From contig VMFW01000001.1 in the NCBI GenBank assembly GCA_007376265.1, forward strand, positions 2,455-66,454: DNA of 64,000 nt. Direction: 5' to 3'. Position 1 is the first letter of the stretch; each line of letters begins with the position of its first letter. Shown in pieces: positions 6 through 61,149 of this stretch. The translations under genes were made by a program, and so were the position numbers. The DNA comes from Parcubacteria group bacterium Gr01-1014_20 (GTDB lineage: Bacteria; Patescibacteriota; Minisyncoccia; UBA6257; 2-01-FULL-56-20). Under the pieces are notes generated by a model that saw only the letters and a program-made list of their open reading frames with translations, was not told the origin of the DNA and ran no database searches.

Positions 6-1724
6 TTGAAGTTGGGAGTTTTTATTTCGCTCTTCTCTTTGGTCATACCTAGAGTAACGCACGCTGGTTGGTTGTTCGATCTTGAGGATGCAGCCGCATG
101 GTTATTTGGTTGGATAATGTTCGTGGTGAGTTATTTAATATCGACTATTTTTGGCTTTTTTATCGCCATTCAGGCTTGGGCGATAGGGCTACTCCTCCAA
201 ATTCAATCGGCTCAAAAAATCGTAAACCTGCCGGTCGTGTCGATTGGTCACGAGATGATGCTCTCGCTTGCCAACCTAGGCTTTGTGGCGGCGATTATAT
301 TTATCGCTGTCGCCACCATCCTTAGGCTTCAGACCTACAACGTTAAGAAGACTTTATGGAAGTTAATTATTGCCGCGCTCCTTGTAAATTTCAGCCTGGT
401 TTTTACGGGCGCGATTATGAACTTGTCGGATCAGTTGAGTTTTACATTTTTACAGCAGTTCCCGGGACAATCCCCCGGATCAACGACTGGTTTTGCGAGC
501 GCCATCACAACGGCTTTTTCTCCGCAGAAGTACCTGAATCCTCAGGCTGACCCGGAAGCTAGGGCGGCAGCGGCGGCAAACCCCGCAGGGGTGACAGAAC
601 AATACGCTGGGGCGATATCACAAGTGGACGATGACCATCAGGAGGATATCGATGGAATTGGCCAGCTTCTAGCGCCGATTTTCTCGATGGTGATGACAGT
701 TTTAGGGTTGGGATCAATAGTGATGGTCTTGGGAGCTTTTCAAGTTTTACTGCTCATCAGATACATTGCTTTATCGATTCTTCTTGTGCTGATGCCAATG
801 GTGTGGCTTTTTTGGATCTTTCCGGGGCTTAGTGGGATGTGGACTTCCTGGTGGAAAAACTTTTTCCGGTGGACCTTTTTTGCGCCCATCGTTTTGTTTT
901 TTGTGTGGCTCGTAATTAAAACCGGGGAGGCGATGCAAGCTGGGTCTGCGGGAAGCCCGTTTAGCGGAGAAAACATGAACTTCTCGTCGAGTGATCCAAG
1001 CCCGTTGATAGCCTCTATCTCCAACTTCCTAGGCCAAACTTTCACACCGATTATCGGCACGACTCTGAATGGCTTCGTCTTAGTTGGATTGATGGTGGGG
1101 GGGCTTTTTGCGGCCAACAAGCTTTCGATCACGGGAGCGGGAGCGGCGGTGTCAGCTGTCAAGGGAGCTGGGAAGGGGGCGGCCAAGGGAGCGTGGGGAT
1201 ACACTAAGGGCAAGGCCACATCCACCCTCGGAAGACCGCCGGACCAGGACAAAGCTGGTTTTAAGGGATTGATGCAAAAAATGAATTTAGCCCAGGGCGT
1301 TCGCAAAAGAGTTCAGGATGCGGCCAAAATAGAGCAGAAGGTTGGTATTAAAGACGGCCCGGCCACAAAATTGGCGGCTAAAGGGAAGGAGGCAGCCGAG
1401 GAGTCAAAGAAGCGCGACGAGATGAAAAAGGAATATATTTCTAGGTATGGGGAAATTAAGGGGCGGGCGGCTTACGCGGTGGCTCCAGGGAAACCCAGCC
1501 CAACTCTGGTTCAATCTGTTTTCATTGAGGCCGCGAGGGGAAGCGGGCTTTTGGGAAAGAGCCAAAAGCTAACTAAGGAGCAAAAGAAGATGTTGGGGCT
1601 AGAGGAGAGAGAGGAGAAGGAGGAGAAACCAGAAGGAGAAAAGAAACCGGTTATCATCGCTGGAACCCAGGATGCTTACAACGAAGCAACGGGTGGGGGG
1701 CCGAAAATAATCCCTGGAGCTTAG
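6..1724 (+). CDS. VirB6/TrbL-like polytopic membrane protein with a Lys/Glu-rich C-terminal tail; possibly 5'-partial, since the frame is open to the window edge
   Basis: Possible signal peptide at the N-terminus, six or more hydrophobic helices and a long charged tail; lies in a cluster with a VirB4 ATPase. TTG start at 6. Confidence 0.45.
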   Translation: MKLGVFISLFSLVIPRVTHAGWLFDLEDAAAWLFGWIMFVVSYLISTIFGFFIAIQAWAIGLLLQIQSAQKIVNLPVVSIGHEMMLSLANLGFVAAIIFIAVATILRLQTYNVKKTLWKLIIAALLVNFSLVFTGAIMNLSDQLSFTFLQQFPGQSPGSTTGFASAITTAFSPQKYLNPQADPEARAAAAANPAGVTEQYAGAISQVDDDHQEDIDGIGQLLAPIFSMVMTVLGLGSIVMVLGAFQVLLLIRYIALSILLVLMPMVWLFWIFPGLSGMWTSWWKNFFRWTFFAPIVLFFVWLVIKTGEAMQAGSAGSPFSGENMNFSSSDPSPLIASISNFLGQTFTPIIGTTLNGFVLVGLMVGGLFAANKLSITGAGAAVSAVKGAGKGAAKGAWGYTKGKATSTLGRPPDQDKAGFKGLMQKMNLAQGVRKRVQDAAKIEQKVGIKDGPATKLAAKGKEAAEESKKRDEMKKEYISRYGEIKGRAAYAVAPGKPSPTLVQSVFIEAARGSGLLGKSQKLTKEQKKMLGLEEREEKEEKPEGEKKPVIIAGTQDAYNEATGGGPKIIPGA

Positions 1725-1734
1725 CGGTATCATC

Positions 1735-2757
1735 ATGAACTACTCATTATTTGAACCACAAATTTTAGTTGACCGTTTCGCGTCTTTGCCGGAGAACATC
1801 AAGAGTTCCTTGAATCACCCGAGCGACGCCGAGATTGTGGAACAAATTTGCCGGAATAATTTTTTGGAGGACGGCGACAAGATTTTAATGGTTCAACAGC
1901 TAACAACCTTGGTTTTGATGGGGTTTCTTTTGCCCGAGGAGCTAGGACGAGAAATTGCCAACAATCTTCACCTGAACCTAAAAGCAGGCCAAGCGATTGC
2001 CGAGGAGATTGATCGGAAAATTTTTACTTCGATTCATGCTGATCTAAAGAGAGTTTATTCGCCTCTCAAAGAAGCGGCGGCCGATGGTCCCGGACCAGTT
2101 ATCCTCGGGGTCACTTCGGCGGAGACGGGATCGGTCACAATGATTCCGGGGGGAATAGCGGCCGAGGCCGAGAAAAAATTAAAGGGAGCTTCGATTCAGG
2201 AAAAGATTGCGATTCTTCGAGAGGCCGCGACGGCAGGATTTGCAAGTCAGATTCCAAACATTGAGGAACACCTCAAGGAAAGCGAATTTAAGCTTTATGG
2301 AGAGCAAAAAACTTATCAGGACATCGCCGACCGAAGCGGACTAAGCCTAAAGACAATGGTGGCGGACAAAAAAACGACCGAGAGTCAAGCTGGGCCGGCG
2401 AGTGAAGTGGTTCAGAAAATTTCGGCCTACTTCAAACGCCTTCCCTCGCCCGGTGAGCTGGATTCTTTTTTTGGCGACTCATCTTTGACAAAACTCCTGC
2501 CCTTTGGACTAGACGCAACCGCACTCAAAGAAGTTCAGCTCGAGGTGGTGCGCGGAGTGACTTCGGGTTTTTCGCCGGAGGTGATGGCTAACTTTTTTGC
2601 TCAGCTTGTCAAAAGGGGGCGGCTTGAGAACTTTACTGCGGTGGCTCGCGGAGCAGGACTAAAGGAGTCCGACTTCGCGCCTGACAATTTACGATGGCTT
2701 ACAAACCAAGCGGCTGCGCCGCTTGGGATTGGTCGCCAAACTTTTGGTTTAGCTTAA
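1735..2757 (+). CDS. Hypothetical protein whose N-terminal ~100 aa are paralogous to the next ORF
   Basis: Shared motifs with ORF 2761: ...L(V/I)L(M/G)FL(L/R)PE(E/D)... and ...KIF(T/S)(S/P)(I/L)... then ...R(V/A)YxPL. Tightly packed in the same operon. Confidence 0.5.
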   Translation: MNYSLFEPQILVDRFASLPENIKSSLNHPSDAEIVEQICRNNFLEDGDKILMVQQLTTLVLMGFLLPEELGREIANNLHLNLKAGQAIAEEIDRKIFTSIHADLKRVYSPLKEAAADGPGPVILGVTSAETGSVTMIPGGIAAEAEKKLKGASIQEKIAILREAATAGFASQIPNIEEHLKESEFKLYGEQKTYQDIADRSGLSLKTMVADKKTTESQAGPASEVVQKISAYFKRLPSPGELDSFFGDSSLTKLLPFGLDATALKEVQLEVVRGVTSGFSPEVMANFFAQLVKRGRLENFTAVARGAGLKESDFAPDNLRWLTNQAAAPLGIGRQTFGLA

Positions 2758-2760
2758 CAA

Positions 2761-4146
2761 ATGACAATCACAAAAGAACAGGCTCAAACTCGATTTAAAA
2801 CCCTAACGCCTCTTTTGAAATCGGCACTTTTTTCGGTTCAAACCGCGGAGTCGATCGCAAGGGTGGCCGAACAAAACACCCTGCCAAAAGAAAAATCGAC
2901 CCAGATGGCGGAGGTGGCGGGGCTCGTAATACTAGGATTTCTACGACCGGAGGATGCGGCCCCAGAAATTCAATTGCGACTTGGTGTCCCCGCTCAATCG
3001 GCTAAGAGCATATCGGATTCACTGAGCAGTAAGATTTTTTCTCCTCTCAAGATTGAGATTGACCGAGCTTACCAACCGCTTGCCGGAGGCGACAAAAAAC
3101 CGACTTTTTCAACGGGTTCAACGTCAAAGCCAAGTATTGTGGAGGAGATAAAACAGCTTGAAAAATCTGGCGAAGAACTGGTGGGGGTTTTGAAAAGAAT
3201 GGAGAGTCCGGTTAAACCAGCTCAACCCCCGAGTTTTCCCGCAAGTTCGGGAATGGTGAAGACCCCGGCCGCACCCTTCATTCCGCCTCGGCCGTCAGCG
3301 GTCCCACTCCCTCCCTCTATTGAACTCAAAACAACTCCACCCCCACCCGTCCATGGACCAGTAATCCTCCACCGGGAATCGGAGGCTAACCCACTCGCAT
3401 CTGGCTTGGGTTTTAAGCTCGATATCCCCTCGGGAAAATTTTCGGATCGAGGCGTTACGCCCGAATCTACAGGGAAGATGGCGAGGTTAGAGGTTGGGGG
3501 AATGCAAAAATCGCCTGCCAATGCCACGGCTAGGACAGGCGTGGCGGGAGCGGGGAAAACCTTAAACTACGGCGGAAGTTTTGACCAAAATCCGAGACCA
3601 ACGGTGCCACCGCCACTCCCCATCAGGCCCACAGAGGAACCGTTTTCGAAGTCGGCTTTTGGGGGTTTGCCGCCCGTCATGCCTAAACCCTCTGTCTTGC
3701 CGCAAAGCCCTCAAGTGAACCTTCCGAACCCACCTCGACCCCAGCCACCTCGTCCCGAACAGGCGCCCCCCAACTTACCACCCCTGCCCGACAAAAAATA
3801 TCAAACTATGCCCAGGATAGAGAACAAACCCTCGCCCTTCGGCTGGATAAAATCTCTTTTTGGAAATAAGCAGCGACCCGTTCCTCCCGAAGTTAAGGTG
3901 GTGAACTTGAGCGCGGATAGTCGGCCAACCACCCCAAAAATAGAACTGCCCCAGCCCCAAAAACAAGGGCCGCCGCCAATACCCGCTTCTCCTCGTCCCC
4001 CGACCCCCCCCTTGCCCCCACCGCCAACCCCCGGCCCGAGGAGTAGCTCTCCGACAGTTGACATAAAACTTAAGGCGCCAGCTCCAACCCCGAACCAGAC
4101 CGAAGAAGTGATTGATTTGAGTTCGCTTACGAAGATAAGGAAGTAG
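2761..4146 (+). CDS. Hypothetical protein with a paralogous N-domain and a very proline-rich C-terminal ~250 aa (PPxP repeats)
   Basis: ATG start 4 nt after the previous stop. Long ORF whose proline codons create spurious antisense ORFs. Confidence 0.55.
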   Translation: MTITKEQAQTRFKTLTPLLKSALFSVQTAESIARVAEQNTLPKEKSTQMAEVAGLVILGFLRPEDAAPEIQLRLGVPAQSAKSISDSLSSKIFSPLKIEIDRAYQPLAGGDKKPTFSTGSTSKPSIVEEIKQLEKSGEELVGVLKRMESPVKPAQPPSFPASSGMVKTPAAPFIPPRPSAVPLPPSIELKTTPPPPVHGPVILHRESEANPLASGLGFKLDIPSGKFSDRGVTPESTGKMARLEVGGMQKSPANATARTGVAGAGKTLNYGGSFDQNPRPTVPPPLPIRPTEEPFSKSAFGGLPPVMPKPSVLPQSPQVNLPNPPRPQPPRPEQAPPNLPPLPDKKYQTMPRIENKPSPFGWIKSLFGNKQRPVPPEVKVVNLSADSRPTTPKIELPQPQKQGPPPIPASPRPPTPPLPPPPTPGPRSSSPTVDIKLKAPAPTPNQTEEVIDLSSLTKIRK

Positions 4147-4161
4147 TGGTATATTTTTTCT

Positions 4162-4671
4162 ATGCAGTTTCAGGTTCCTCAATTTATTGAAACGGAGGAT
4201 AAAATTGTTGGCCCGCTATCACTTCGGCAATTTATTTATATTGCGGTGGCGGGAGCGCTTTGCTTTATCTTGTTTTTCGCCCTTAAAACTTGGCTTTGGT
4301 TTATTTTTACAGTCTTGCTCGCGGCGATATCCTTTTCTTTAGCTTTTTTGAAGGTGAATGGACAACCCTTAGTAAGGGTGATTATGGCTGGAGCAAGATT
4401 TCTATGGAAGCCGCAAACTTTTGTTTGGCAGCCGGAACGGAAGACCCCTACGAGAGGGACTGACATGCAACCAGAAAAACCAGCTTTTTCGCTTCAAGAC
4501 ATCATGGCGGGGATGGCTCTTAGAAGCACGTGGCAGAAACTACAGACTGGCAGTCGGAAGTCACCAGCAGAAGAGGTGAAGCCGATTACTCAGAAAATAA
4601 AAGAAAGGTATCAAATTTTCGAGAAAATCACCGGCGAGCGCCAGGCAGCCAGGCGGGTAGATTACCGATAG
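4162..4671 (+). CDS. Small two-helix membrane protein, PrgI/VirB3-like candidate
   Basis: 169 aa with two adjacent TM helices near the N-terminus, positioned immediately upstream of VirB4 as in Gram-positive T4SS loci. Confidence 0.4.
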   Translation: MQFQVPQFIETEDKIVGPLSLRQFIYIAVAGALCFILFFALKTWLWFIFTVLLAAISFSLAFLKVNGQPLVRVIMAGARFLWKPQTFVWQPERKTPTRGTDMQPEKPAFSLQDIMAGMALRSTWQKLQTGSRKSPAEEVKPITQKIKERYQIFEKITGERQAARRVDYR

Positions 4672-4742
4672 CTGGGCATGGGTGAGTGTTTTTTTAAATA
4701 GAGAAACTTTGGGTTTCTCGATTTTGCTTTATAATAATTGGG

Positions 4743-5465
4743 ATGGCCTTAAACAAGCAATTATCAAATACGCAGGACCTGGTGGCGATTGAGGAGATTC
4801 ATGACAACACGGTTATCTTAAAAAGCGGGGCAATGCGACAAGTGCTTATGGTGGGCGGCATGAACACGGCTCTTAAATCGGAGGAGGAGCTGAATTTGAT
4901 TACGACGTCTTATCAGAATTTTCTGAACAGCCTCGATTTCTCGATTCAGATCATCGTTCACTCACGAAAGGTGAATATAGAAAAGTATCTTTCGGGCCTA
5001 GAGGAAAGGCGGCGGTTGGAACAGTCGGCTATTCTGCAAAGTCAGATTTCAGAGTACAAGGAGTTTATCGCTGGCTTTGTTCGAGAAAACGACATTATGG
5101 AGAAGACCTTTTTAGTGGTGGTGCCGTTTAGCCCGAGTGGCCTCGCCGGAGTAACGTCGGCTTCGGGAGTTGCGAAACTGTTTCCTTTCTTCGGTGCGAA
5201 AGGCGATGCGAAAGAGGTGAAGGTCAAAGAGGGGATGGAAAAGGAGGCGAGTTTCAAAGAGAGTTTGGGTCAGTTAAATCAAAGAGTTAACCAGATTGTC
5301 GAGGGCTTGCGAGCGATTGATCTAGACGCGGCAGTTCTAGGCGACGAGGAGCTGATTGAGCTTTTTTATAACTTCTACAATCCTGAAACAGTTGAGCGGG
5401 GAAACCTAAATGTCCCAGTCGAAAAAAACGAAGGCGTTGAAGGTGATGAGGTGGAGAACAAATAA
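4743..5465 (+). CDS. VirB4-family N-terminal domain encoded as a separate ORF
   Basis: Motif ...DNTVILKSGAMRQVLMVGGMNTALKSEEE... resembles the VirB4/TrbE N-terminus. TAA stop lies 2 nt before the ATG of the ATPase ORF, which is in a different frame. Confidence 0.6.
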   Translation: MALNKQLSNTQDLVAIEEIHDNTVILKSGAMRQVLMVGGMNTALKSEEELNLITTSYQNFLNSLDFSIQIIVHSRKVNIEKYLSGLEERRRLEQSAILQSQISEYKEFIAGFVRENDIMEKTFLVVVPFSPSGLAGVTSASGVAKLFPFFGAKGDAKEVKVKEGMEKEASFKESLGQLNQRVNQIVEGLRAIDLDAAVLGDEELIELFYNFYNPETVERGNLNVPVEKNEGVEGDEVENK

Positions 5466-5467
5466 TC

Positions 5468-7183
5468 ATGCCAGGAATCAATTTTAAAGAGACAAAAAAG
5501 ATAATCGCTCCAGCCGGAGTTCAGGTTGAGTCGAACTACCTGAAAATTGGAGATAAGTTTGTTAAAACTTTCTTTATATTTTCCTATCCGAGATATCTTT
5601 CGACAGGTTGGTTCGAGCCACTCATAAACTTGCCAAATATTTTTGATATTTCGATTTTTATTAACCCGGTAGACACCGGGATGGCACTCAAAAAACTCCG
5701 AAAGAAGGCTGCTCAAATCGAGTCGCAGATCAGCGACCAGCAGGAAAAGGGACTGGTGAGGGATCCCCTACTCGAGACGGCATTTCAGGATGTGGAGAGC
5801 TTAAGAGACGCTCTCCAACAAGCGCAAGAAAGGCTTTTTGAGATTGGGGTTTACGTTTCGATTTATGCCGACGATCTGGAGGCCTTGGCTAAACTTGAAA
5901 GTCGAATCGACTCTTTAATGGAAGCCAAACTTATATACATCAAGCCCGCGCTTTTCCAGCAGATTGAGGGGCTGTCTTCAATTTTGCCTCTCGCAAACGA
6001 TGAGGTGGATGTGACGACCCCGATGAACTCGGCGCCGATCTCTTCTTTTTTCCCGTTCGTTTCGGAGGACCTAAACTCCAGCCAGGGCATTATGTACGGC
6101 ATTAACCGTCATAACAACAACCTGATTATTTTTGATCGTTTCTCGCTCGAGAATGCAAATCAGGTGGTTTTTGCCAAATCTGGTTCTGGAAAATCCTATG
6201 CCACTAAGCTCGAGATAATTCGCTACTTGATGATGGGGGTGGATGTTCTCGTAATTGATCCGGAAAATGAATACAAAAAACTCTGTGAAGCGTTTGGGGG
6301 AAGTTTCTTCAATATATCTCTCTCGTCTCACGAACATATTAATCCTTTTGATGTGCCGGTTGTTCCAGAAGGAGAAACGCCAACGGATGTTCTCCGCTCT
6401 CACATAGTTAACCTAGCTGGGTTATTGAAGCTAATGCTTGGAAACATTAGCGTGGAGGAAGACGCGCTCTTGGATCGAGCAATCACTGAAACTTACGCCT
6501 CAAGAGAGATCGTGCCCGGAGAAGATTTCTCCGGAGCCCAACCACCGCTGCTTGAAGACTTGGAAACTGTGCTTCGGAACCTCGAAGGAGGGCGGGGAAT
6601 AGCCGAGCGGCTTTACAAATTTACGAAGGGAAGTTTCGCTGGGTTTGTGAATCAGCCCACCAATATTGATATTGGTAATCGCTTGATTGTTTTTTCTATC
6701 CGCGACCTTGAAGACGAACTTAGGCCGATTGCGATGTACATAATTCTTAACTTCATTTGGAATTTAACTCGGGCGCAACTTAAGAAGAGGTTGCTAATTA
6801 TAGATGAGGCTTGGTGGATGATGAAATATGAAGATAGCGCTACATTTCTTTTTGGGTTGGTGAAGCGGGCGAGAAAATATTACTTAGGGGTTTCCACGAT
6901 CACTCAAGACGTCGAGGATTTCTTAAGGTCCCCTTACGGGCGGCCAATTATTACTAACTCTTCCATTCAGCTACTACTCAAGCAGGCGCCGGCGACGATT
7001 GATATCGTGGCTAAGGCTTTTGGGCTTACTGAAGCCGAAAAAAATATGCTTCTTTCGGCGGAGGTGGGGACGGGGCTTTTCTTCGCGGGCCGGAAACACG
7101 TGGCTATCCAGATTATCGCTTCTTTCTTTGAAGACCAACTAGTGACAACCAACCCCCAGCAACTCCTAGAGGAAAAAGCTTGA
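5468..7183 (+). CDS. virB4: VirB4/TrbE/PrgJ-family conjugation-type ATPase (C-terminal ATPase portion)
   Basis: Walker A AKSGSGKSYATK, Walker B LLIIDEAWWMM, and a YPRYLSTGWFEPLINLPNIFDIS segment typical of Gram-positive VirB4. SD GAGGTGG lies upstream within the previous ORF. Confidence 0.85.
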   Translation: MPGINFKETKKIIAPAGVQVESNYLKIGDKFVKTFFIFSYPRYLSTGWFEPLINLPNIFDISIFINPVDTGMALKKLRKKAAQIESQISDQQEKGLVRDPLLETAFQDVESLRDALQQAQERLFEIGVYVSIYADDLEALAKLESRIDSLMEAKLIYIKPALFQQIEGLSSILPLANDEVDVTTPMNSAPISSFFPFVSEDLNSSQGIMYGINRHNNNLIIFDRFSLENANQVVFAKSGSGKSYATKLEIIRYLMMGVDVLVIDPENEYKKLCEAFGGSFFNISLSSHEHINPFDVPVVPEGETPTDVLRSHIVNLAGLLKLMLGNISVEEDALLDRAITETYASREIVPGEDFSGAQPPLLEDLETVLRNLEGGRGIAERLYKFTKGSFAGFVNQPTNIDIGNRLIVFSIRDLEDELRPIAMYIILNFIWNLTRAQLKKRLLIIDEAWWMMKYEDSATFLFGLVKRARKYYLGVSTITQDVEDFLRSPYGRPIITNSSIQLLLKQAPATIDIVAKAFGLTEAEKNMLLSAEVGTGLFFAGRKHVAIQIIASFFEDQLVTTNPQQLLEEKA

Positions 7184-7220: not shown

Positions 7221-7784
7221 ATGGAAGACGAGCGTGATCATGAACCACTAATATCTCTGGTTGAGATTTTGATCATTGCCCCCTACATACTGGTAATCGA
7301 TATTATCGGAATACTTTTGGCGTTTTTGGCGTTGGATGATTTTTTCATTTTGGACATTTTGATGTTGCCGGTACTAGGATACCTCTGGTTTAAGGGGGTG
7401 CCGCTTACGAGATATGTTTCTTCGGCTATTGGGGAGGCGATACCGTGGATAGGAGATTTGCCGCTGTATTCGGTTGGTTTCATTTTAACGATTGTTGCGG
7501 ACAGAAACCCGAAGGTGGGGGCGGCCCTTGGAGCGGCCACGGGTTCAACGGCACTTGCCAAGGGGGCGGGAGGAGTCGCCAAGGGCGTGCAGGCGGAAAA
7601 AGGAGCGGTGGCTAAAGCTAAGGACTCGCTTCCAAAGAGGTCTCCGGCGACCCAACAGGCAACCGGACTGGAGGCCGATAGACCGCTTAGGGGACTAAAA
7701 GATACGATGGAGAAGGTTCCAGAATCAAATGTGGTTGATCTGCGCGGAGAGGAAGAGGACGATGAATACGGGATGGTGGCTTAG
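7221..7784 (+). CDS. Small membrane protein with a Gly/Ala/Lys-rich tail and acidic C-terminus
   Basis: Two or three TM helices. Its KGAGGVAKG-type motif resembles the one in the VirB6-like protein. Confidence 0.5.
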   Translation: MEDERDHEPLISLVEILIIAPYILVIDIIGILLAFLALDDFFILDILMLPVLGYLWFKGVPLTRYVSSAIGEAIPWIGDLPLYSVGFILTIVADRNPKVGAALGAATGSTALAKGAGGVAKGVQAEKGAVAKAKDSLPKRSPATQQATGLEADRPLRGLKDTMEKVPESNVVDLRGEEEDDEYGMVA

Positions 7785-7836
7785 GTTCTCGGTGGATCGC
7801 TGTTGATGAATATATGTGTGTTAGTTGTTATAATTG

Positions 7837-8520
7837 ATGGGAATGAATAAAAAAGGAGCTCTTTTTATAGTACTGTTTTTTTTCTTAGCAGCCTTCGCTT
7901 ACGTCGCTCGTGGCCAGACTTTTTCTCCTTCGGCAATTCTCACATGGCGGGCGGCGACTTTTTCACCGGCCAAATACCAAGGCAAAAACCTACCAACAGC
8001 CGGTGCTCAAATAAATTTGTCGGTCGAAGTGATTAATAAGGGGGTTTTGCTTAATTTAGCGAAGCAGAACATTCTGTGGTATTTGGGTGACGAACTGATC
8101 GCAAGTGGCGAGGGAGTGCGGGAGGCGATTTTTAGACCAACGAGAGACGGCCTTCAAGACGTGAGGGTGGAGGTTTGGTCACAATTCGGAAAGGTTTCGG
8201 CGGGAACAAAAATTCCGGTTGTGTGGCCGGAGGCAGTTGTCTCGGCGCCGTTTCCCGGGGGGAATTTTTCTAAGACAAACCTGACGGTTAGAGGATATCC
8301 GTATTTTTTTAATGTGGCTAATTTGGCTGATCTCAACTTTGTCTGGAAGGTAAATTCTAAAGAAGTCGGCGCGGCGGGTGACGTTGATGTCTTAAACCTA
8401 AACGTTGATCCGAAGGCGGCCCAGGGCTTTAGGTTGAATGTGGGTTTGAGTATCACAAAAAAGGCCGGGGACAAACAAGGATCGAGCAAGGAGGTGATTC
8501 TCACCTACAAAAAAATTTGA
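7837..8520 (+). CDS. Secreted protein with a signal peptide, function unknown
   Basis: N-terminus MGMNKKGALFIVLFFFLAAFAYVARG. An extended -10 element TGtTATAAT lies upstream at about 7815-7823. Confidence 0.5.
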   Translation: MGMNKKGALFIVLFFFLAAFAYVARGQTFSPSAILTWRAATFSPAKYQGKNLPTAGAQINLSVEVINKGVLLNLAKQNILWYLGDELIASGEGVREAIFRPTRDGLQDVRVEVWSQFGKVSAGTKIPVVWPEAVVSAPFPGGNFSKTNLTVRGYPYFFNVANLADLNFVWKVNSKEVGAAGDVDVLNLNVDPKAAQGFRLNVGLSITKKAGDKQGSSKEVILTYKKI

Positions 8521-9083
8521 TGGCGCGGCTAGTAGTTCATAAAACGATGGTTTTGATCTTTCTCTCCGTTGGTCTAGTGGTCTTAGGTTTGGGGTCAACC
8601 TTGGCGGCAGAGACAAACATCAGCGTGGGTATTCCGGGGCCTAACGATACGGTGGCCGAGGGGAGCGCCAACCCGGCTGGGGTGGTGGCGAATGCCTATC
8701 AGTTCGCGCTCATGATCGGGGGGTTAATGGCTTTTGTGATGATAGTTTACGGCGCCGTAAAATACACGGCGGCAGGCGGAAACAGTTCGGTTCAGAGCGA
8801 TGCCAAAGACCGGATCACGCAGGCGCTTTTGGGGTTAGCGCTTTTAGTTGGGGCGGCCATAATTCTTTCGACGATAAGCCCCCGCTTTAAATTAGAAAAT
8901 GGTGTTTTTACACTCCCGACGATTCCTTCTGGGCAGCAACTAGAAGAAGAAACGAACGCGCTTTTTAATCCTTTTCAAAATAACCCGCCGGGACAGTGTG
9001 GTCCGGTTGGTAGTCCCTGTACGTGCCCAGGCGGAACGAGTGGTAGTTGCGCCGCCGACGGAAGGTGTACGCCCTGTACATAA
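8520..9083 (+). CDS. VirB2/TrbC-like pilin candidate with a Cys-rich C-terminal extension
   Basis: Long signal peptide, then two hydrophobic helices (ANAYQFALMIGGLMAFVMIVYGAV and ALLGLALLVGAAIILSTI) separated by a charged loop. The tail has 6 Cys in CGPVGSPCTCPGGTSGSCAADGRCTPCT. Confidence 0.45.
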   Translation: MARLVVHKTMVLIFLSVGLVVLGLGSTLAAETNISVGIPGPNDTVAEGSANPAGVVANAYQFALMIGGLMAFVMIVYGAVKYTAAGGNSSVQSDAKDRITQALLGLALLVGAAIILSTISPRFKLENGVFTLPTIPSGQQLEEETNALFNPFQNNPPGQCGPVGSPCTCPGGTSGSCAADGRCTPCT

Positions 9084-9088
9084 ATAAT

Positions 9089-10309
9089 ATGAAAAAATAC
9101 ATATTTTTGTTGGTGGCAATAGCCGGAGTAGTACTTCTTTTTGTGGGGGGATATTTCTTGAGGCAGGGCTTAGACCGAAGTCCCGAGGCTCCGGGTGATA
9201 CTTCGGAGGGCGGAAGCTTGCCAGGAGCTGGAGACCAAAATCTCCCCCCAGGTGATCAAGGGGGGCAACCGGCTGGTCCTCTGACTAACCCTAAAGACTT
9301 GGTTCAGGTTTTGGCCGGACCGGTTTTGGATTATTTTGTTTCGTCTGGGGGGAACATAGTTTACATCCAACCAGACGGACAGATTTTTGAAAGTAAAGGC
9401 GGGCAGGCGGCAGTTTTGAGCGGCACTAAGATAGAAAACTTGGCTCGTGCCGGTTTTTCATATAACGGCGAGAAGTTATTGGTTGTTTTTGGTCAATTGG
9501 GGCAGCTTCAGGCAAGTGTGTTTGATTTGAAGACGAAGGCCTGGCAGCCACTCACCATTTCTCCGGAGACGGCTGCCTGGTCGCCGACTGACGAAAAGCT
9601 AGCGCTCCTTTCGAGGACAGCGGGGGTGGCGAGCGTTTCAACCCTTGATTTGGCTAACGCCAAATCGAAGCCGATTGAGCTTTTTAAGATCAGGGCTTGG
9701 GATGTCGATCTCGGGTGGCCAGTTAAGAACAAGCTGCTCCTTAAAGAAAGAACGGGTTCTCGATCTGGGGGTTCGGTCTGGATCTACGACTTGGATAGAA
9801 AGACGATTAGCTCACTTTTGGCTCACAAAACTGGACTGCGATCAACATGGAATAGCGCGCTTACACTAGGATTGGTTTTCGGAATCAATGAGGCAAGTGA
9901 GGGCTCACTATCACTCGTTGACGGAGCTGGTGTCACTACTCGGGGGTTGGGCTTCAAGACCAGACCAGACAAGTGCGCCTTTAGCGAAAGAACGGAAACG
10001 GTCACGAGCACGGTAGGAGCTACTGGAACTCCGGCGAAGAAAACGACAACAAGGATTGTTAACCTACTCACCTGCGGAGTACCCAGAAATTTTTCTTCGC
10101 TTACGGATCTGGGTTTTCTGGACGATTACGACAAAGAAGGCCTCTTCACAGTTGATAGTGTTTACCAGATAAACCTGGAGGGTGGCTCTTCACAGGCTCT
10201 TTTTGACGATCGATCGAAAAGTTTAGATGTGAGTCAGGTGAAAGTATTTTCCAAGAAGTTTTACTTCGTAGACAGATACAGCGGGGGTCTTTATTCGGTG
10301 GCGTTGTAG
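9089..10309 (+). CDS. Membrane-anchored or secreted protein, possibly a beta-propeller/TolB-like fold
   Basis: ATG at 9089 gives MKKYIFLLVAIAGVVLLFVGG as an N-terminal anchor. Last gene before a strong terminator. Confidence 0.45.
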   Translation: MKKYIFLLVAIAGVVLLFVGGYFLRQGLDRSPEAPGDTSEGGSLPGAGDQNLPPGDQGGQPAGPLTNPKDLVQVLAGPVLDYFVSSGGNIVYIQPDGQIFESKGGQAAVLSGTKIENLARAGFSYNGEKLLVVFGQLGQLQASVFDLKTKAWQPLTISPETAAWSPTDEKLALLSRTAGVASVSTLDLANAKSKPIELFKIRAWDVDLGWPVKNKLLLKERTGSRSGGSVWIYDLDRKTISSLLAHKTGLRSTWNSALTLGLVFGINEASEGSLSLVDGAGVTTRGLGFKTRPDKCAFSERTETVTSTVGATGTPAKKTTTRIVNLLTCGVPRNFSSLTDLGFLDDYDKEGLFTVDSVYQINLEGGSSQALFDDRSKSLDVSQVKVFSKKFYFVDRYSGGLYSVAL

Positions 10310-10356: not shown

Positions 10357-10791
10357 TTATCTGATTAATTTTATGATGACGTGTCTTTCTTTGCTTAAGC
10401 CCGCGCTTTCGGTAGTGACTTCGGGGTGAACAGCTAGCGCCATATGAATTAGGCGTCTCTCATAAGAGTTCATAACCGGAAGAGATATGTTCTCGCCGGT
10501 AGCTAAGACTTTTTTAGCGGCGGCCTTGGCGAGTTCAACAATAAGGTTTTCTCGCTCCTGGCGATAATTGTTCACGTCGAAGACCGGGGGTGTTTGCCCG
10601 CCTCTTTTCGCGGCCATCTGAATTACATAGTTCAGGCTCTCAACGATTTGCGCGAGGTTGTCCTTCACGAGGGTCGGACTGTCGTAAATAAAAACTAGCC
10701 CGCGGTTTCGTTCGTTGTCGATCTCGACCCTAAAGTCTTTAAAGCCGATTAACTCAATTGTTTTTTTCACGAATGTTTCCCAGTTCTCCAT
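10357..10791 (-). CDS. jag: Jag/KhpB-like RNA-binding protein (KH plus R3H domains)
   Basis: R3H-type motif YERRLIHMAL; synteny rnpA-yidC-jag. Confidence 0.7.
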   Translation of the reverse strand: MENWETFVKKTIELIGFKDFRVEIDNERNRGLVFIYDSPTLVKDNLAQIVESLNYVIQMAAKRGGQTPPVFDVNNYRQERENLIVELAKAAAKKVLATGENISLPVMNSYERRLIHMALAVHPEVTTESAGLSKERHVIIKLIR

Positions 10792-11506
10792 GTTCTCGGT
10801 TGATTTTTTTGCTGATAACTTTTTGTTGAATAATGGTTACGAGCGAGGTGGTTAACCAGTAGAGCGCCACGGTGGCCGGGAGACCGGCAAGGACGATAAT
10901 CGTAAACCCGGGGGTAATAAAGACCATCTGGCGACCAATTTTCTCGGCCTTAGTCGCTTCGTGCCCCGGTTTCTGGGGGGGGAGGGATAGCTTAGCTTGA
11001 AAGTACTGGGCGAGAGCAGCCAAAATCAGAACTATAAAGTTATTTCCCACGATACTACTTTCTTTTAGGTTTATCAAGCCCAGGAAAGAAGTGTTTAAAT
11101 CTACCGGCGCTTTCACAAAACTATAAAGCTCGGCGAACGTTTCGGGGGTGAAGCTCGATCGGGCGATTTGGAAAAGGGCGATGATGACCGGCATTTGAAC
11201 CAAGAGGATGAGAATGCCAGAGAAAGGTTTGACGTTATGTTCTTTGTAGAGCTCCATTGTGGCCTGGGCTTGTTTTTCGCGATTGCCTTTATGGACCTCT
11301 TGGGCTTTGCGAATTTTTGGCTGGAGCTTTTGCATTTCATTTTGATGACGGACATTTTTTTGAAAGAGCGGGTAAAGAATAATCCTAATGAAGATAGTGA
11401 GGAGAATAATGGCTAGACCAAAATTTTGGAATGCAACGGTGTTGTAAAAAAGGATTAGGATATTTAAAAGCGGCTCGTGGATTAAGTTGTTGTACAGTTC
11501 TATCAT
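10754..11506 (-). CDS. yidC: Membrane protein insertase YidC (short form)
   Basis: Polytopic, 250 aa, sits between rnpA and jag. Confidence 0.8.
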   Translation of the reverse strand: MIELYNNLIHEPLLNILILFYNTVAFQNFGLAIILLTIFIRIILYPLFQKNVRHQNEMQKLQPKIRKAQEVHKGNREKQAQATMELYKEHNVKPFSGILILLVQMPVIIALFQIARSSFTPETFAELYSFVKAPVDLNTSFLGLINLKESSIVGNNFIVLILAALAQYFQAKLSLPPQKPGHEATKAEKIGRQMVFITPGFTIIVLAGLPATVALYWLTTSLVTIIQQKVISKKINREHGELGNIREKNN

Positions 11507-11526
11507 TTTATTATTTTCCTCTCCGC

Positions 11527-11856
11527 TTACTTTGCTCTCTGGCTTTTCAATATCCCCCCTAAAAGTTCGGAGAGCTCGTCTTTGAGGGTAGGTTCGGGGT
11601 CGCTAGCTTTTTTGCTGTACACGAAAAGGATGTTTAGTCCGAGGTTGGGCCAACCCTTGAGGCCTTCGTAGATTTCTCGCTTCAAGGAGTGGCGTCTCAC
11701 CGCGCTTTTTTCAACCCGAGCGGCGATCGAAACTCCAAACCGGTTAAATTTTGATTGGTTTGGCCAAAATTTTAAAGTGAAATGCGTAGATCGAATAGAG
11801 TGGTGGCCACTGGATAAAAAATCTTCGGCTGAAAGCCGATATTTTTTAGCTAACAT
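11527..11856 (-). CDS. rnpA: RNase P protein component
   Basis: 109 aa basic protein (ARVEKSAVRRHSLKR) located downstream of rpmH. Confidence 0.85.
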   Translation of the reverse strand: MLAKKYRLSAEDFLSSGHHSIRSTHFTLKFWPNQSKFNRFGVSIAARVEKSAVRRHSLKREIYEGLKGWPNLGLNILFVYSKKASDPEPTLKDELSELLGGILKSQRAK

Positions 11857-33078: not shown

Positions 33079-33379
33079 TGTTATCGCCGTCCTTTCTTCG
33101 GAAAACGAAATTTTAAAGGCGTGAATTTACTGGGAGTGATAGTATCACCTTGCTCTACTGTTTGTCAATGGGGGGTTAGTTGTTGGAGGTTCAGATCGGA
33201 GCATAATAACCCAGAGCACAAGACCCCGCCCTTGGGTGGATTTTTGTTAGCGGTGTTTTGGTGGAGATAGGGGAATTTCACTGCCTACCTTGAAGGAAGC
33301 TCCGACGTGATAGTCGGAGCACTCGTTTTGCAAACAAAAAAATACCGTGATCAATCGGTATTTTTTGTGCAAAACTGAG

Positions 33380-33695
33380 TGGAGATGGGCGGAATTGAAC
33401 CGCCGTGTAAGGGTATTGCCGCTAAATCATCTACGAGTGTATTTCCGCCGAAGCGAAAAAGGTTTGATTCATTGTCTCGTTCCTAAACCAGAATCATCGT
33501 TTAGAAACCAGTCTTCGGTATAACACCGCGATTAGCCAGAGAAGACTACCCAGCTAGGCGATGCCGAGTTTAAGCGTAAGCTAGGCTCGGAGCTGCAACT
33601 TTGTTGTTGGCAGTTATAAATTTTTTTGTCGGATTAACGAGACGACGCTCGACTCGCAATTCAGAACTTTACCCCTATCGAAGCCATTCATCCCC
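33380..33695 (-). ncRNA. ssrA: tmRNA (SsrA)
   Basis: 5' end GGGGATGAATGGCTTCGATAGGGG; 3' tRNA-like end GGCGGTTCAATTCCGCC-CATCTCC-A pairs with the 5' end including a G3-U wobble. Internal tag ORF GCC AAC AAC AAA GTT GCA GCT CCG AGC CTA GCT TAC GCT TAA gives ANNKVAAPSLAYA. Terminator hairpin downstream at about 33330-33365. Confidence 0.8.
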
Positions 33696-42996: not shown

Positions 42997-45900
42997 ATGT
43001 TCGTTAAAGATTTAAAAGAATTTAATTTGCCCAAAACCGAGGAAAAGGTTTTGGAGTACTGGAAGAAAAACCAAATTTTCGAAAAAACACTCGCTTTAAG
43101 GAAACCCACCTCCGCTAAAGCTTCGAAGGGCAAAAAACACTTCGTGTTTTTTGAGGGGCCACCGACGGCGAACGGCCGGCCTGGGATCCACCACGTTTTG
43201 GCGCGAGCTTTTAAGGACGTCATTTTACGGTATAAAACCATGCGGGGTTTTAACGCGCCGCGGCGGGCGGGGTGGGACACGCACGGACTGCCAGTAGAGA
43301 TTCAGGTTGAAAAAGAGCTGGGCTTGAAGTCGAAAAAAGATATTGAAAAATTTGGGATCGCGGAGTTTAACAAAAAGTGCAAGGAATCGGTCTGGAAATT
43401 TAAGGATGAGTGGGAGAGGTTAACCGAGCGGATGGGTTTTTGGTTGGATATGAAAGACCCTTATGTCACTTACGAGAAAGATTATATTGAAACTTTGTGG
43501 TGGATCATCGCGCAGTTTTGGAAGAAGAAGCTTTTATACAAAGGAAACCGAATAGTGAATTGGTGCACCCGTTGCGGAACAGGACTTTCTTCACACGAGA
43601 TGGCGCAGGGGTACAAGGAAGTGACGGATAATTCGGTTTATGTAAAGTTTAAACTGAAGAAGGGCCAGAAGGTCGGAAAAGATTTTTCGACAAACGATAA
43701 AACCTATATTTTATCTTGGACAACCACGCCCTGGACGTTGCCCGGTAACGTAGCGCTCGCAGCTGGAGAGAAGATACGTTACGTCTTTATTGAAGCCGAT
43801 GGAGAAGTTTTGGTTTTAGCTAAAGAAAGGATGGAGGCGGTGGGAGTTCAGGGAAGAATTATTAAAGAAACGATGGGCAAAGATTTGGTAGGTTTGTCGT
43901 ACCAACCGCTTTTTGAGGTGGACCCACTCAAGAGCAAAAATTCTTACAAAGTTTATGCGGCGGATTTTGTGACGACGACGGATGGAACAGGTGTGGTGCA
44001 TACGGCGGTCATGTACGGAGAGGATGACTACAAGTTGGGCGTGAAGATGGGTTTGACCCAACACCACACCGTGGACGTGGCAGGGAAATTTACAAAAGAC
44101 GTAAAAGTTCTGGCGGGTATGTACGTCAAAGATAAAAAAACTGAAGAAAAAATTCTTAATTATCTAAAAGCTAGAAGTTATCACCTGAAAACTGAACCAC
44201 ACAAACATGACTATCCGCATTGCTGGCGATGTTCGACGCCTCTGCTTTATTATGCGAGGTCGTCTTGGTTTGTGGCGATGTCGAAGCTCAAAAAAGAACT
44301 TTTAGCTAGTAACAATAAGATCAATTGGACGCCAGAGCACGTTAAAAATGGAAGGTTTGGCGAGTGGCTTCGAGAGGTTAAAGATTGGAATTTTTCGCGG
44401 GAAAGATACTGGGGGACGCCCTTGCCGATTTGGGAGTGTAGCAAATGCGGGATTACGGAAGCAATTGAGAGTTTAGCTGATTTAGATGGAAAAACCGGAG
44501 GGGCGAGAAATCGGTATTGGGTGATGAGACACGGACAATCCGAGGCGATGATGGTGGGCGTGATTGACGCTGGTAAAGGAAAGTATCGTTTGACTGACCT
44601 GGGACGAAAACAAGCGGAAAAAACCGCCAAGAGGTTGGCCAAGGAAAAAATTGATTTAGTAATTAGCTCCGATGTTTTGAGGACTAAAGAGACGGCGCAA
44701 ATTGTGGCCAGGGTTTTGGAGGTGGGGAAGCCGGTTTTAGATGAGCGTCTTCGCGAGATAAATTTGGGGGTTTTGGCCGGAAAATCTGTTCGGGAGTATT
44801 CGGAGATTTTGCCTACGCTCGATTCCAGGATTTTAGGAAAACCAGAAGGTGGGGAGTCGATAACAGATGTGAGAACCAGGATGTGGAGTTTCGTTCAGGA
44901 GATTGAGAAGAAGTATAAAGGCAAAAATATTTTGCTAGTTAGTCACGAGTACCCGATATGGATTTTAAGTCAGGTGATGAATGGCTGGACGAATCAGGAA
45001 CTCATTCTAGAAAAAACTAAAGGGGGAAAAAACTATATTGAGGCTGGTGAGGTTTGGGGGGTGGCGCATAAGGTTTTGCCGAGAGATAATACCGGTCTGG
45101 TTGATTTGCACCGACCGTATATCGACGAGATTTTCCTAAAGTGTTCGAAGTGCGAAGGAAAAATGAAGAGGGTAAAAGAATTGGCGGACGTCTGGTTTGA
45201 TTCTGGGGCGATGCCGCTAGCACAGTCTCATTTTCCATTCGACCGTGCAAAAAGTTCCAAGTCACAAATAACAAATAACAAAGAACACGTTGATTATCCG
45301 GCGGACTATATTTGCGAGGCAGTGGATCAGACGCGGGGATGGTTTTATACGCTTTTAGCGATAGCCACGGCTCTCGGTAAGAACGCGCCTTACCGAAATG
45401 TAATTTCGCTCGGACATATCAACGACAAACACGGGCAAAAAATGTCCAAATCAAAAGGAAACATTGTTGATCCGTGGATGATGGCAGAAAAATATGGCAT
45501 GGATGCCGTGCGTTGGTACATGTATGCTGCGACACCGCCGGGAGAGCCAAAAAATTTTGACGAGCAAGAGCTTCTTAAAACCTACAGGCGGATGCATTTA
45601 ATTTTGTGGAACTCCCTTCTTTTCTATAAAACATACGCCGTTTCTGGGTCCAGTCGTAAGTTGGGGTTGCGGCCGAAGTCTAAGAATTTGCTTGATTTAT
45701 GGATGCTCTCTCGGCTTGATGAGGCGATAGTCAGAGCGACTAAAGCGATGGATCGATATGATATTCGGGGGGCTGCGCTCGAGATTGAAAAACTGGTGGA
45801 CGATCTTTCTAGATGGTACATTCGTCGCTCGCGACGAAGGTTGCAACGACCGGAGAGTAAAGCCGATTTTGAAGCTTGTGCGTCTACGCTTCAGCATGTC

Positions 45901-46563
45901 CTAGCCTCGATTTCTAAAATGATGGCGCCGTTTAATCCTTTCTTTTCGGAGGTTGTTTGGAATACTTTGGGAGGCGCGAGCTCTATTCACCTTGAAGATT
46001 GGCCGACAAGAAACATTAAGAGCCAAGCGCCAGGCAATAAGTTGGTGGAAGAGATGGGAGTGATACGCGGCTTAGCAACCCTGGGTTTGGCGAAAAGAGC
46101 CGAGGTGGGGGTGAAGGTGAGACAGCCCCTCTCGGTGATGAAAATAAAGCCCAAGGTTACCAACAAGCAGTCGCTTCAGATTTTGGCTGATGAGGTCAAT
46201 GTTAAAAAGACTATCGTTGATGCGAAGATAAAAGGTGAGATCGAACTCGATACAAGGATAACTGCGGAGTTGAAAGAAGAGGGGATTTTAAGGGAGCTCG
46301 TACGGGCGATTCAGGATTTGCGTCAGAGAGCGGGGCTGGAGCCTGGCGACGCGATTGTTGTGATGTTGGAGTTGCCGGATAACTTGCGAGAGATAGTTTT
46401 GTCCGCCGGAGGCCGATCCTCCTCGGGAGGAAAAAATGAAGCCTTTTTGAAGAATGAAACTGGAGCTAAAAGTATTGAATACAAAAGATCAGAAAAGTTT
46501 GAAGCGGAAGCGATCACGAAGTTTGAAGATTCAGAGGTTTGGTTGGCAGTTAGGAAGATATAA
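42997..46563 (+). CDS. ileS: Isoleucyl-tRNA synthetase carrying an inserted histidine-phosphatase-like domain
   Basis: HIGH motif PPTANGRPGIHHV, CP1 editing motifs (TTPWTLPGN, GTGVVHTA), KMSKS. About 190 aa (RYWVMRHGQSE ... LLVSHEYPIW) lie between PLPIWECSKCG and DLHRPYID. Confidence 0.95.
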   Translation: MFVKDLKEFNLPKTEEKVLEYWKKNQIFEKTLALRKPTSAKASKGKKHFVFFEGPPTANGRPGIHHVLARAFKDVILRYKTMRGFNAPRRAGWDTHGLPVEIQVEKELGLKSKKDIEKFGIAEFNKKCKESVWKFKDEWERLTERMGFWLDMKDPYVTYEKDYIETLWWIIAQFWKKKLLYKGNRIVNWCTRCGTGLSSHEMAQGYKEVTDNSVYVKFKLKKGQKVGKDFSTNDKTYILSWTTTPWTLPGNVALAAGEKIRYVFIEADGEVLVLAKERMEAVGVQGRIIKETMGKDLVGLSYQPLFEVDPLKSKNSYKVYAADFVTTTDGTGVVHTAVMYGEDDYKLGVKMGLTQHHTVDVAGKFTKDVKVLAGMYVKDKKTEEKILNYLKARSYHLKTEPHKHDYPHCWRCSTPLLYYARSSWFVAMSKLKKELLASNNKINWTPEHVKNGRFGEWLREVKDWNFSRERYWGTPLPIWECSKCGITEAIESLADLDGKTGGARNRYWVMRHGQSEAMMVGVIDAGKGKYRLTDLGRKQAEKTAKRLAKEKIDLVISSDVLRTKETAQIVARVLEVGKPVLDERLREINLGVLAGKSVREYSEILPTLDSRILGKPEGGESITDVRTRMWSFVQEIEKKYKGKNILLVSHEYPIWILSQVMNGWTNQELILEKTKGGKNYIEAGEVWGVAHKVLPRDNTGLVDLHRPYIDEIFLKCSKCEGKMKRVKELADVWFDSGAMPLAQSHFPFDRAKSSKSQITNNKEHVDYPADYICEAVDQTRGWFYTLLAIATALGKNAPYRNVISLGHINDKHGQKMSKSKGNIVDPWMMAEKYGMDAVRWYMYAATPPGEPKNFDEQELLKTYRRMHLILWNSLLFYKTYAVSGSSRKLGLRPKSKNLLDLWMLSRLDEAIVRATKAMDRYDIRGAALEIEKLVDDLSRWYIRRSRRRLQRPESKADFEACASTLQHVLASISKMMAPFNPFFSEVVWNTLGGASSIHLEDWPTRNIKSQAPGNKLVEEMGVIRGLATLGLAKRAEVGVKVRQPLSVMKIKPKVTNKQSLQILADEVNVKKTIVDAKIKGEIELDTRITAELKEEGILRELVRAIQDLRQRAGLEPGDAIVVMLELPDNLREIVLSAGGRSSSGGKNEAFLKNETGAKSIEYKRSEKFEAEAITKFEDSEVWLAVRKI

Positions 46564-61072: not shown

Positions 61073-61144
61073 CGGCCCGTAGCTCAGTGGCAGAGCAAGC
61101 GTCTTATAAGCGCTGGGTCGCAGGTTCGATCCCTGCCGGGCCGA
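61073..61144 (+). tRNA. tRNA-Ile(UAU), putative
   Basis: Hand fold: acceptor cggcccg/cgggccg, D-loop agtggcaga, anticodon loop ctTATaa, T-loop ttcgatc, discriminator A. Confidence 0.7.
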
Positions 61145-61149
61145 CAGAT

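Follow-up and report, generated by a model that had tools for sequence, protein, structure and literature searches.

The window analyzed here is a 64,000-nucleotide stretch of contig VMFW01000001.1 from Parcubacteria group bacterium Gr01-1014_20, and the gene that concerns us is an open reading frame (ORF) on its forward strand that starts with an ATG at position 8520, stops at 9081–9083, and encodes a protein of 187 aa. An identical protein is deposited at NCBI as TSC82828.1 ("Uncharacterized protein G01um101420_10", locus tag G01um101420_10) from the same bacterium. The protein matches the Pfam family PF18895 (T4SS_pilin) with a score of 34.0 bits (cutoff 26.6; E = 3.1e-8), and the match covers residues 55–119, which correspond to profile positions 8–71 of 71. 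Because the Pfam match is significant, the NCBI comparison returned 12 homologues in addition to the identical protein, and 7,857 representative relatives were found in a wider search, we conclude that the gene is real. The type IV secretion system (T4SS) and the pilin family in question are known, and the gene is a typical family member that was left unannotated in the database. We are highly confident in identifying its product as a VirB2-like PF18895 pilin of a chromosomal, origin-proximal, monoderm-type T4SS of the Parcubacteria that resembles the mating-pair formation (MPF)-FATA type.

The preliminary description of this stretch, which was made from the letters alone, had reported an ORF with a signal peptide and two hydrophobic helices separated by a charged loop, and this arrangement is confirmed by the sequence, by hydropathy, and by an AlphaFold2 (AF2) model. 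Hydropathy places three hydrophobic stretches at residues 1–30, ~55–81, and ~102–120. The first belongs to a signal peptide with R3 and K8 in its n-region, a hydrophobic portion at residues 10–25, and the cleavage motif LAA↓ETN, and we infer that cleavage occurs after Ala30. The signal peptide had been called long, and in this respect the description needs correction, as 30 aa with an ordinary LAA↓E motif is not a VirB2-like leader of ~47 aa. The AF2 model, which was built on an alignment of 13 sequences, has helices at residues 2–30, 52–84, and 89–119, with a predicted local distance difference test (pLDDT) score of 84–88 in the hairpin. The segment at 121–155 is disordered (pLDDT <50), and the Cys region is modeled with moderate confidence (pLDDT ~75) as three short strands. 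The turn region carries K81, K96, and R98, while the N-terminal segment has no positive charge, and the window sequence GGNSSVQSDAKDRITQ agrees with the turn consensus GN(P/S)SxQSDAKDxITQ derived from 142 relatives. The tail after helix 2 is 67 aa long, where ~70 aa had been estimated, and it ends, exactly as had been read, in CGPVGSPCTCPGGTSGSCAADGRCTPCT, with six Cys (residues 160, 167, 169, 177, 183, and 186) in the last 28 residues. The mean Cys content across the 59 long ORFs of the window is 0.42%, and the probability of finding six or more Cys in 28 residues at that content is 1.9e-9; thus, the Cys cluster is not a product of chance.

The pilin gene is the ninth of 10 co-directional genes (Table 1). 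It lies 1.3 kb from the end of the gene for the VirB4-type ATPase, and genes for PrgI and a TrsD-like protein belong to the same co-directional cluster. The match of the ORF directly upstream of virB4 to NF041427 (TrsD) has an E value of 5.6e-8 and a score of 32.8 bits, which is far under the 200-bit cutoff. With a pilin-family profile match, a predicted hairpin fold, and a VirB3/TrsD-like/VirB4 cluster around the gene, the T4SS pilin-type helical hairpin that had been proposed from the letters is supported, and the outcome named in the preliminary description as refuting it did not occur. Immediately downstream of the cluster, on the opposite strand, are jag, yidC, and rnpA at 10357–11856 and then rpmH, followed by dnaA at 12153 and dnaN, so the pilin gene is ~3 kb from dnaA. 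The order VirB4, transmembrane (TM) protein, secreted protein, pilin, anchored protein, jag/yidC/rnpA, and dnaA is kept in three contigs from relatives (L001–L003). Among the window ORFs that were scanned against Pfam and NCBIfam, which did not include every small ORF, there was no match to a relaxase or a type IV coupling protein. A family hidden Markov model run over all six-frame ORFs of the 64-kb window found no second pilin paralogue and no pilin array. In a MAG (metagenome-assembled genome) of a related member of the Patescibacteria, H51-bin005_1, two divergent pilin genes lie on different contigs (L028 and L029), and the genome of the window may likewise encode additional pilins beyond these 64 kb. 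The gene for a secreted protein upstream of the pilin has a stop codon that overlaps the pilin start in the sequence TGATG at 8518–8522, and the same 1-nt overlap recurs in L002 (at 3356) and in L003 (at 2608), which suggests translational coupling of the secreted protein and the pilin.

Table 1. Features of the T4SS gene cluster and of the pilin within the window.
Feature	Coordinates	Strand	Basis
Seven-TM membrane protein, candidate VirB6/PrgH-like channel subunit	6–1724	+	Seven TM segments by hydropathy; no Pfam/NCBIfam match
Two adjacent proteins of the cluster	1735–2757, 2761–4146	+	No TM segment; no Pfam/NCBIfam match
PrgI family (VirB3-like) T4SS membrane protein	4162–4671	+	PF12666, 40.9 bits (cutoff 27)
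TrsD-like protein resembling the N-terminal part of VirB4	4743–5465	+	NF041427 TrsD; VirB4_plasma N-terminal region, E = 2e-11
VirB4-type T4SS ATPase (CD1110/MPF-FATA type)	5468–7183	+	NF045971 conju_CD1110, 386.2 bits (cutoff 325); P-loop_TraG and AAA_10
Small membrane protein	7221–7784	+	Syntenic with the pilin in L001–L003
Secreted 225-aa protein	7843–8520	+	Sequence; weak PKD match
Pilin gene, 187 aa plus stop	8520–9083	+	ORF list and sequence; PF18895 match; identical database protein
Sec signal peptide, aa 1–30	8520–8609	+	Hydropathy; AxA motif before ETN kept in homologues
N-terminal exposed segment of the mature pilin, aa 31–52, with family motif xPG	8610–8675	+	Alignments; pLDDT <50
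Hydrophobic helix 1, aa 53–84	8676–8771	+	AF2 helix 52–84, pLDDT ~85; hydropathy
Polar turn region, aa 81–101, KYTAAGGNSSVQSDAKDRITQ	8760–8822	+	Conservation per column over 142 relatives
Hydrophobic helix 2, aa 102–120, ending in conserved S/N-T-I-S/N-P	8823–8879	+	AF2 helix 89–119; hydropathy; conservation
Cys-free Pro/Thr/Gly-rich flexible spacer, aa 121–159, with family motif L.LP.L (here FTLPTI)	8880–8996	+	pLDDT <50; family spacer comparison
Six-Cys C-terminal knob, aa 160–187, C-x6-C-x-C-x7-C-x5-C-x2-C-T	8997–9080	+	Sequence; pLDDT ~75
N-terminally anchored extracytoplasmic protein, 406 aa, last gene of the cluster	9089–10309	+	Synteny in relatives

The relatives of the pilin, which are 114–916 aa long, were collected with phmmer from 1.84 billion representative sequences (E ≤ 1e-3), and the detailed tail figures given here come from the nearest 158 of them. 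PF18895 matches all 26 of the diverse relatives that were tested, and those with a name in genome collections are all from Patescibacteria MAGs. From the N to the C terminus, the family layout consists of a signal peptide, the xPG motif, helix 1, the turn GNPSxQSDAKDxITQ, helix 2 ending in NTINP, the motif L.LP.L, a spacer, and a Cys module, and the window protein conforms to it. The turn is the most conserved stretch of the family when conservation is computed for each column over 142 relatives. The spacer is rich in P, L, T, and G, with a median length of 27 aa before the first Cys, and the Cys module ends a median of 2 residues past the last Cys. At least 30 residues follow the hairpin in 143 of the 158 nearest relatives, and the number of Cys after the hairpin is at least four in 117 and at least six in 96. 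Thus, the Cys-rich tail, which had at first been thought unusual for a pilin of this type, is the norm among its relatives.

Cys makes up 5.9% of the tail residues of the family, as compared with 0.4% of the residues in the signal peptide and core. If we consider single-domain members with any Cys in the tail, 111 have an even number and nine an odd number (p = 1.7e-23). Of 107 Cys-rich tails, 97 lack the motif CxxC, and successive Cys are usually 3–11 residues apart. Because Cys counts are even, CxxC is scarce, the spacing is in this range, and the tail is predicted to lie outside the cell, these sequence patterns point to disulfide-bonded mini-domains rather than metal sites. Residues 120–187 of the window protein have no Pfam or NCBIfam match and no similarity to a known peptide family, and to our knowledge the Cys spacing does not fit the consensus of epidermal growth factor domains or of inhibitor cystine knots.

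Some relatives carry other material after the hairpin. An SLT_3 lysozyme-like domain is fused C-terminally to the pilin core in P0008, P0050, P0055, P0130, P0146, and P0155, and such a fusion would place a cell-wall hydrolase on a pilin-type anchor. Long coiled-coil tails are found in P0027, P0038, P0057, P0065, and P0076, and further relatives have Pro-rich tails in place of the Cys module. Three to six tandem PF18895 hairpins occur in single polypeptides (P0014, 461 aa; P0015, 891 aa; P0036, 552 aa; P0140; and P0153), which represent either genuine fusions of arrayed pilins or genes joined in error during gene calling.

The core of the pilin is 94–99% identical to that of close relatives, as compared with ~40% for the knob. 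In L001, whose DnaA and YidC are 96.7% and 94.4% identical to those of the window, the pilin core is identical at 66 of 70 positions and the Cys region at 12 of 30, six of which are the Cys themselves; in L003, the corresponding figures are 69 of 70 and 13 of 32. VirB4 of L002 is 92.8% identical to that of the window and three non-pilin neighbors are 37–39% identical, while the pilin core is identical at 61 of 70 positions and the Cys region, which has the Cys pattern of the window, at 17 of 32. Because L002 is more distant overall and yet carries this Cys pattern, the relationships are phylogenetically incongruent, and this suggests either exchange of a cassette or episodic diversification on a fixed disulfide scaffold. 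The L002 locus (1912–5126, corresponding to 7221–10309 of the window) is mosaic, with 57% identity over the whole pilin, and the surface-exposed part of the cluster appears to have been replaced as a block between L002 and the window. When DNA is compared with that of relatives, identity is 80–95% in the core, falls to 45–56% with many gaps at ~8930–9100, and is ~80% in the next gene. Judged from these alignments, the knob belongs to a sharply bounded hypervariable cassette that covers ~8930–9100.

Tails and cores are decoupled across the family as well. BLAST comparison of tails detects similarity in 72 of the 729 pairs with at least 70% core identity, although single-linkage clustering of these results chained 80 low-complexity Cys-rich tails and is usable solely for this decoupling. 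The preliminary description had proposed that conservation of the Cys spacing be checked in homologues. Cys-rich tails are indeed found family-wide, but the exact spacing, at the extreme C terminus, is confined to this protein, P0002, and P0005, and scans of metagenome and genome contigs gave no further sequence with it. Neither Cys-rich or disulfide C-terminal modules nor their hypervariability is mentioned in published descriptions of Patescibacteria pilins, as far as these are searchable. This family-level feature may therefore be under-described. The new points here are the hypervariability of the Cys module and its proposed display along the whole shaft, for which the argument is given below.

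The layout of the surrounding system has precedent. Quinonero-Coronel et al. 2025 described Patescibacteria T4SSs that consist of an MPF-FATA-like VirB4, TrsD, PrgI, VirB6, and VirB2-like pilins detected by PF18895, usually without a relaxase and often adjoining dnaA, dnaN, rnpA, and rpmH. Among the T4SS components of Patescibacteria, TrsD has been described as the most abundant, and origin-proximal Patescibacteria T4SSs with VirB2-like pilins have already been published (PMC12102498, PMC10633639). The published PF18895 pilins, which include the Southlakia epibionticum ML1 array and TM7x_00135 (PMC12102498, PMC10633639, PMC12857230), share with the window pilin the Pfam family, the architecture, the phylum, a neighborhood with PrgI and VirB4 (plus, in the window, a TrsD-like gene), and the chromosomal site beside dnaA/dnaN/rnpA. 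The window locus differs in having one pilin gene in 64 kb, whereas the published arrays have 2–11. The S. epibionticum array is essential for epibiotic growth (same three sources).

The window protein belongs to PF18895, and by analogy it would work as a VirB2 does. It resembles the classical VirB2/TrbC/TraA pilins (PF04956) of the T-pilus, F-pilus, and RP4 pilus in its leader, which is predicted to be removed, in its pair of antiparallel hydrophobic helices, and in its positively charged turn; VirB3 and VirB4 adjoin in both cases, and the termini are expected to point outward and the loop to be luminal. The solved structure of the T-pilus shows this arrangement, with outward termini and a positively charged luminal loop that touches lipid head groups. 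Unlike the classical systems, the host of the window pilin is a monoderm without an outer-membrane complex. The window pilin also has its 67-aa C-terminal extension, whereas the classical pilins, with ~70 aa in the mature form, end a few residues past helix 2 or are trimmed or cyclized.

By analogy with these systems, we propose that Sec would export the pilin precursor, that cleavage would follow Ala30, and that the hairpin would then reside in the membrane with the N terminus and tail outside and the K/R-bearing turn inside. We favor this topology because the placement of K81, K96, and R98 fits the positive-inside rule. The VirB4/TrsD/PrgI machinery would extract the hairpin and polymerize it into an extracellular filament or short conduit. 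As in the solved VirB2/TraA pili, the lumen of this structure would be lined by the conserved turn, with both termini exposed on the outside. The turn is thus predicted to be cytoplasmic in the membrane form and luminal in the filament, like the luminal loop of VirB2. From each subunit, a flexible spacer of ~39 aa would extend outward and carry at its end a 28-aa knob with three disulfides, and this knob would be a rapidly exchanged surface module with a conserved scaffold. The window contains only this pilin gene, which argues for its product being the major subunit. A knob at the tip of the pilus, as was first imagined, is probably the wrong geometry, since a sole pilin gene in the window and the outward termini of solved T4SS pili together imply that the knob would stud the whole shaft. 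A conserved interior, represented by the turn, combined with a variable exterior is the pattern of surface filaments under selection by partners or enemies, and it fits a filament here.

Our best guess is that the knob would serve contact with the host surface (adhesion, partner specificity) or evasion of filament recognition. The adhesin role raised in the preliminary description, or a role in host specificity, is plausible. We hold the steps from filament to outward knob to host contact only tentatively, at somewhat less than even odds. We are more doubtful about a broader proposal, in which the PF18895 hairpin would be a conserved carrier that polymerizes without an outer membrane and displays swappable modules along the shaft as a determinant of host range, with the cassette at ~8930–9083 recombined between lineages. 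If it were true, the modules, which are mostly disulfide knobs but also lysozyme-like domains and coiled coils, would set the host cells to which an epibiont attaches or on which it feeds.

The favored explanation as a whole, i.e., pilin identity, filament mechanism, and surface knob, has in our estimate a probability of roughly 60%, and several findings weigh against it. PF04956 (TrbC/VirB2), the family to which the preliminary description had looked, gives no match to the window protein at E ≤ 1 and touches five of the 26 diverse relatives at sub-threshold significance (lowest E, 0.0096), so membership is not supported and the link to classical VirB2 is weak. When the core profile was aligned by hhalign with a provisional sequence of Agrobacterium tumefaciens VirB2, the mature N terminus and helix 1 fell in register with a probability of 8%, which is a lead and not evidence. 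Foldseek retrieved no solved pilin, and when the PDB was searched with a sequence profile built from 26 cores, the TM hairpin of HtrII was the sole hit, at E 0.3. The window shows no Dsb- or VKOR-like oxidoreductase. T4SS pili have yet to be seen on a Patescibacteria cell, and the literature speaks only of a potential to elaborate them. Tails of 150–800 aa, as in some relatives, would be difficult to accommodate if each subunit of a tight filament carried one, and not all family members can therefore be major pilins. Finally, adhesion we infer from exposure and variability alone.

Some of these observations are also what one would expect of the main rival explanation, in which the protein never polymerizes and is instead a membrane-resident T4SS subunit or surface anchor that displays spacer and knob at the surface or in the wall zone. 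According to the literature, the T4SSs of other monoderms have neither pili nor VirB2 homologues, and an anchor would agree with the lack of any observed Patescibacteria T4SS pilus, with the weak match of the core to the HtrII hairpin, and better than a filament with the large C-terminal domains (SLT_3, coiled coils) and the fusions of three to six hairpins in relatives. However, the most conserved part of the protein is the turn, which would be cytoplasmic in a membrane form, and this is what is expected for contacts with a filament, lipid, or the machinery. In addition, PF18895 is curated as a T4SS pilin family of which a minority of members touch PF04956, and tight linkage of its genes to VirB4 is on record for 1,135 assemblies, with the genes being essential in S. 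epibionticum. We consider an anchor unlikely. A different question is whether the six Cys might bind metal in a cluster like a zinc knuckle or ribbon instead of forming disulfides. Many members of the candidate phyla radiation (CPR) inhabit anoxic groundwater, the window protein has CxC (167–169) and CxxC (183–186), its close relative P0002 has two CxxC, and the three short strands of the AF2 model are zinc-ribbon-like. Metal binding is nonetheless disfavored and very unlikely in our view, as topology makes the tail extracytoplasmic and the family tails, besides their scarcity of CxxC and their spacing, commonly have 6, 10, or 14 Cys and contain 1.4% His.

Two further explanations depart from a displayed knob or from its mode of diversification. 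If the hairpin were only a carrier, a cut within the spacer might free the tail as a small disulfide-rich peptide acting as a toxin, bacteriocin, or signal; the spacer is disordered in the AF2 model, the conserved L.LP.L after helix 2 could be a processing site, and the C terminus of RP4 TrbC is known to be trimmed during maturation. The cluster has neither a peptidase gene nor a recognizable cleavage motif, though, and the knob is unlike any known peptide family while other tails are enzymes or coiled coils, which favors display, so we regard release as highly improbable. The variable 3′ end might also be the variable repeat of a diversity-generating retroelement (DGR), an element common in CPR genomes, since hypervariability is limited to the last 100–150 nt of the gene, where such repeats usually lie. 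But the 64 kb contain no template-repeat-like copy of 8900–9100, with the best non-self match being 25 nt at 80% identity, and the indels and changed Cys spacing among variants are not products of adenine mutagenesis. No reverse transcriptase was found among the ORFs scanned against Pfam and NCBIfam, which are a minority of the 59 in the window. With no template repeat in the window, a DGR origin of the knob was rejected, and we give it next to no credence.

The favored explanation, a VirB2-like filament bearing a variable knob, has counterparts elsewhere. The archaeal CedA1 and TedC systems (PMC9905601) also combine VirB2-like hairpin pilins with a VirB4-type ATPase; their cells likewise have no outer membrane, and they serve a purpose other than classical plasmid export; they differ in that no sequence relation to the window pilin was detected, they have no disulfide-rich C-terminal module, and their surface density is glycan-like. 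Type IVa pilins (PilE/PilA) and flagellins are analogous in design only, with a conserved polymerizing core and a hypervariable exposed part, whereas they are unrelated in fold, in secretion route (prepilin peptidase and machinery like that of type II secretion), and in assembly ATPases. The C-terminal portion of type IV pilins contains disulfide bonds and is the site of antigenic or adhesive variation.

For this gene, the result is chiefly the correct annotation of an "uncharacterized protein" as a typical family member. The T4SS is among the few machines that genome-reduced Patescibacteria keep; epibiotic growth requires it in the only species for which this was tested, and its function is described in the literature as completely unknown. 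The pilin is the part of the T4SS likeliest to touch the host, and its C terminus, which is predicted to face outward, is typically disulfide-rich and diverges much more quickly than the remainder of the locus. Thus, the knob offers a concrete, testable handle on host specificity.

Among the other genes of the cluster, the products of 1735–2757 and 2761–4146 have a similar N-terminal motif, ...L(V/L)(L/I)(M/L)GFL.PE(E/D)..., and may be paralogous cytoplasmic components. The secreted protein upstream of the pilin has four near-identical homologues, and its AF2 model has a pLDDT of 32. Outside the cluster, the remaining large ORFs that were scanned encode housekeeping proteins (ClpB, aminoacyl-tRNA synthetases, RNase J, H+-PPase, FtsH, and NusA). 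One of the synthetases, a class I enzyme of 1,188 aa encoded at 42997–46563 on the forward strand (tRNA-synt_1 plus Anticodon_1), has a histidine-phosphatase domain (His_Phos_1) inserted at aa 508–668 (E = 2.8e-35), which is an unusual domain insertion. A tRNA-Ile with the anticodon UAU is encoded at 61073–61145 on the forward strand; in most bacteria, AUA is read instead by a lysidine-modified CAU tRNA. On the reverse strand, at 33379–33695, lies a transfer-messenger RNA gene with the tag peptide ANNKVAAPSLAYA.

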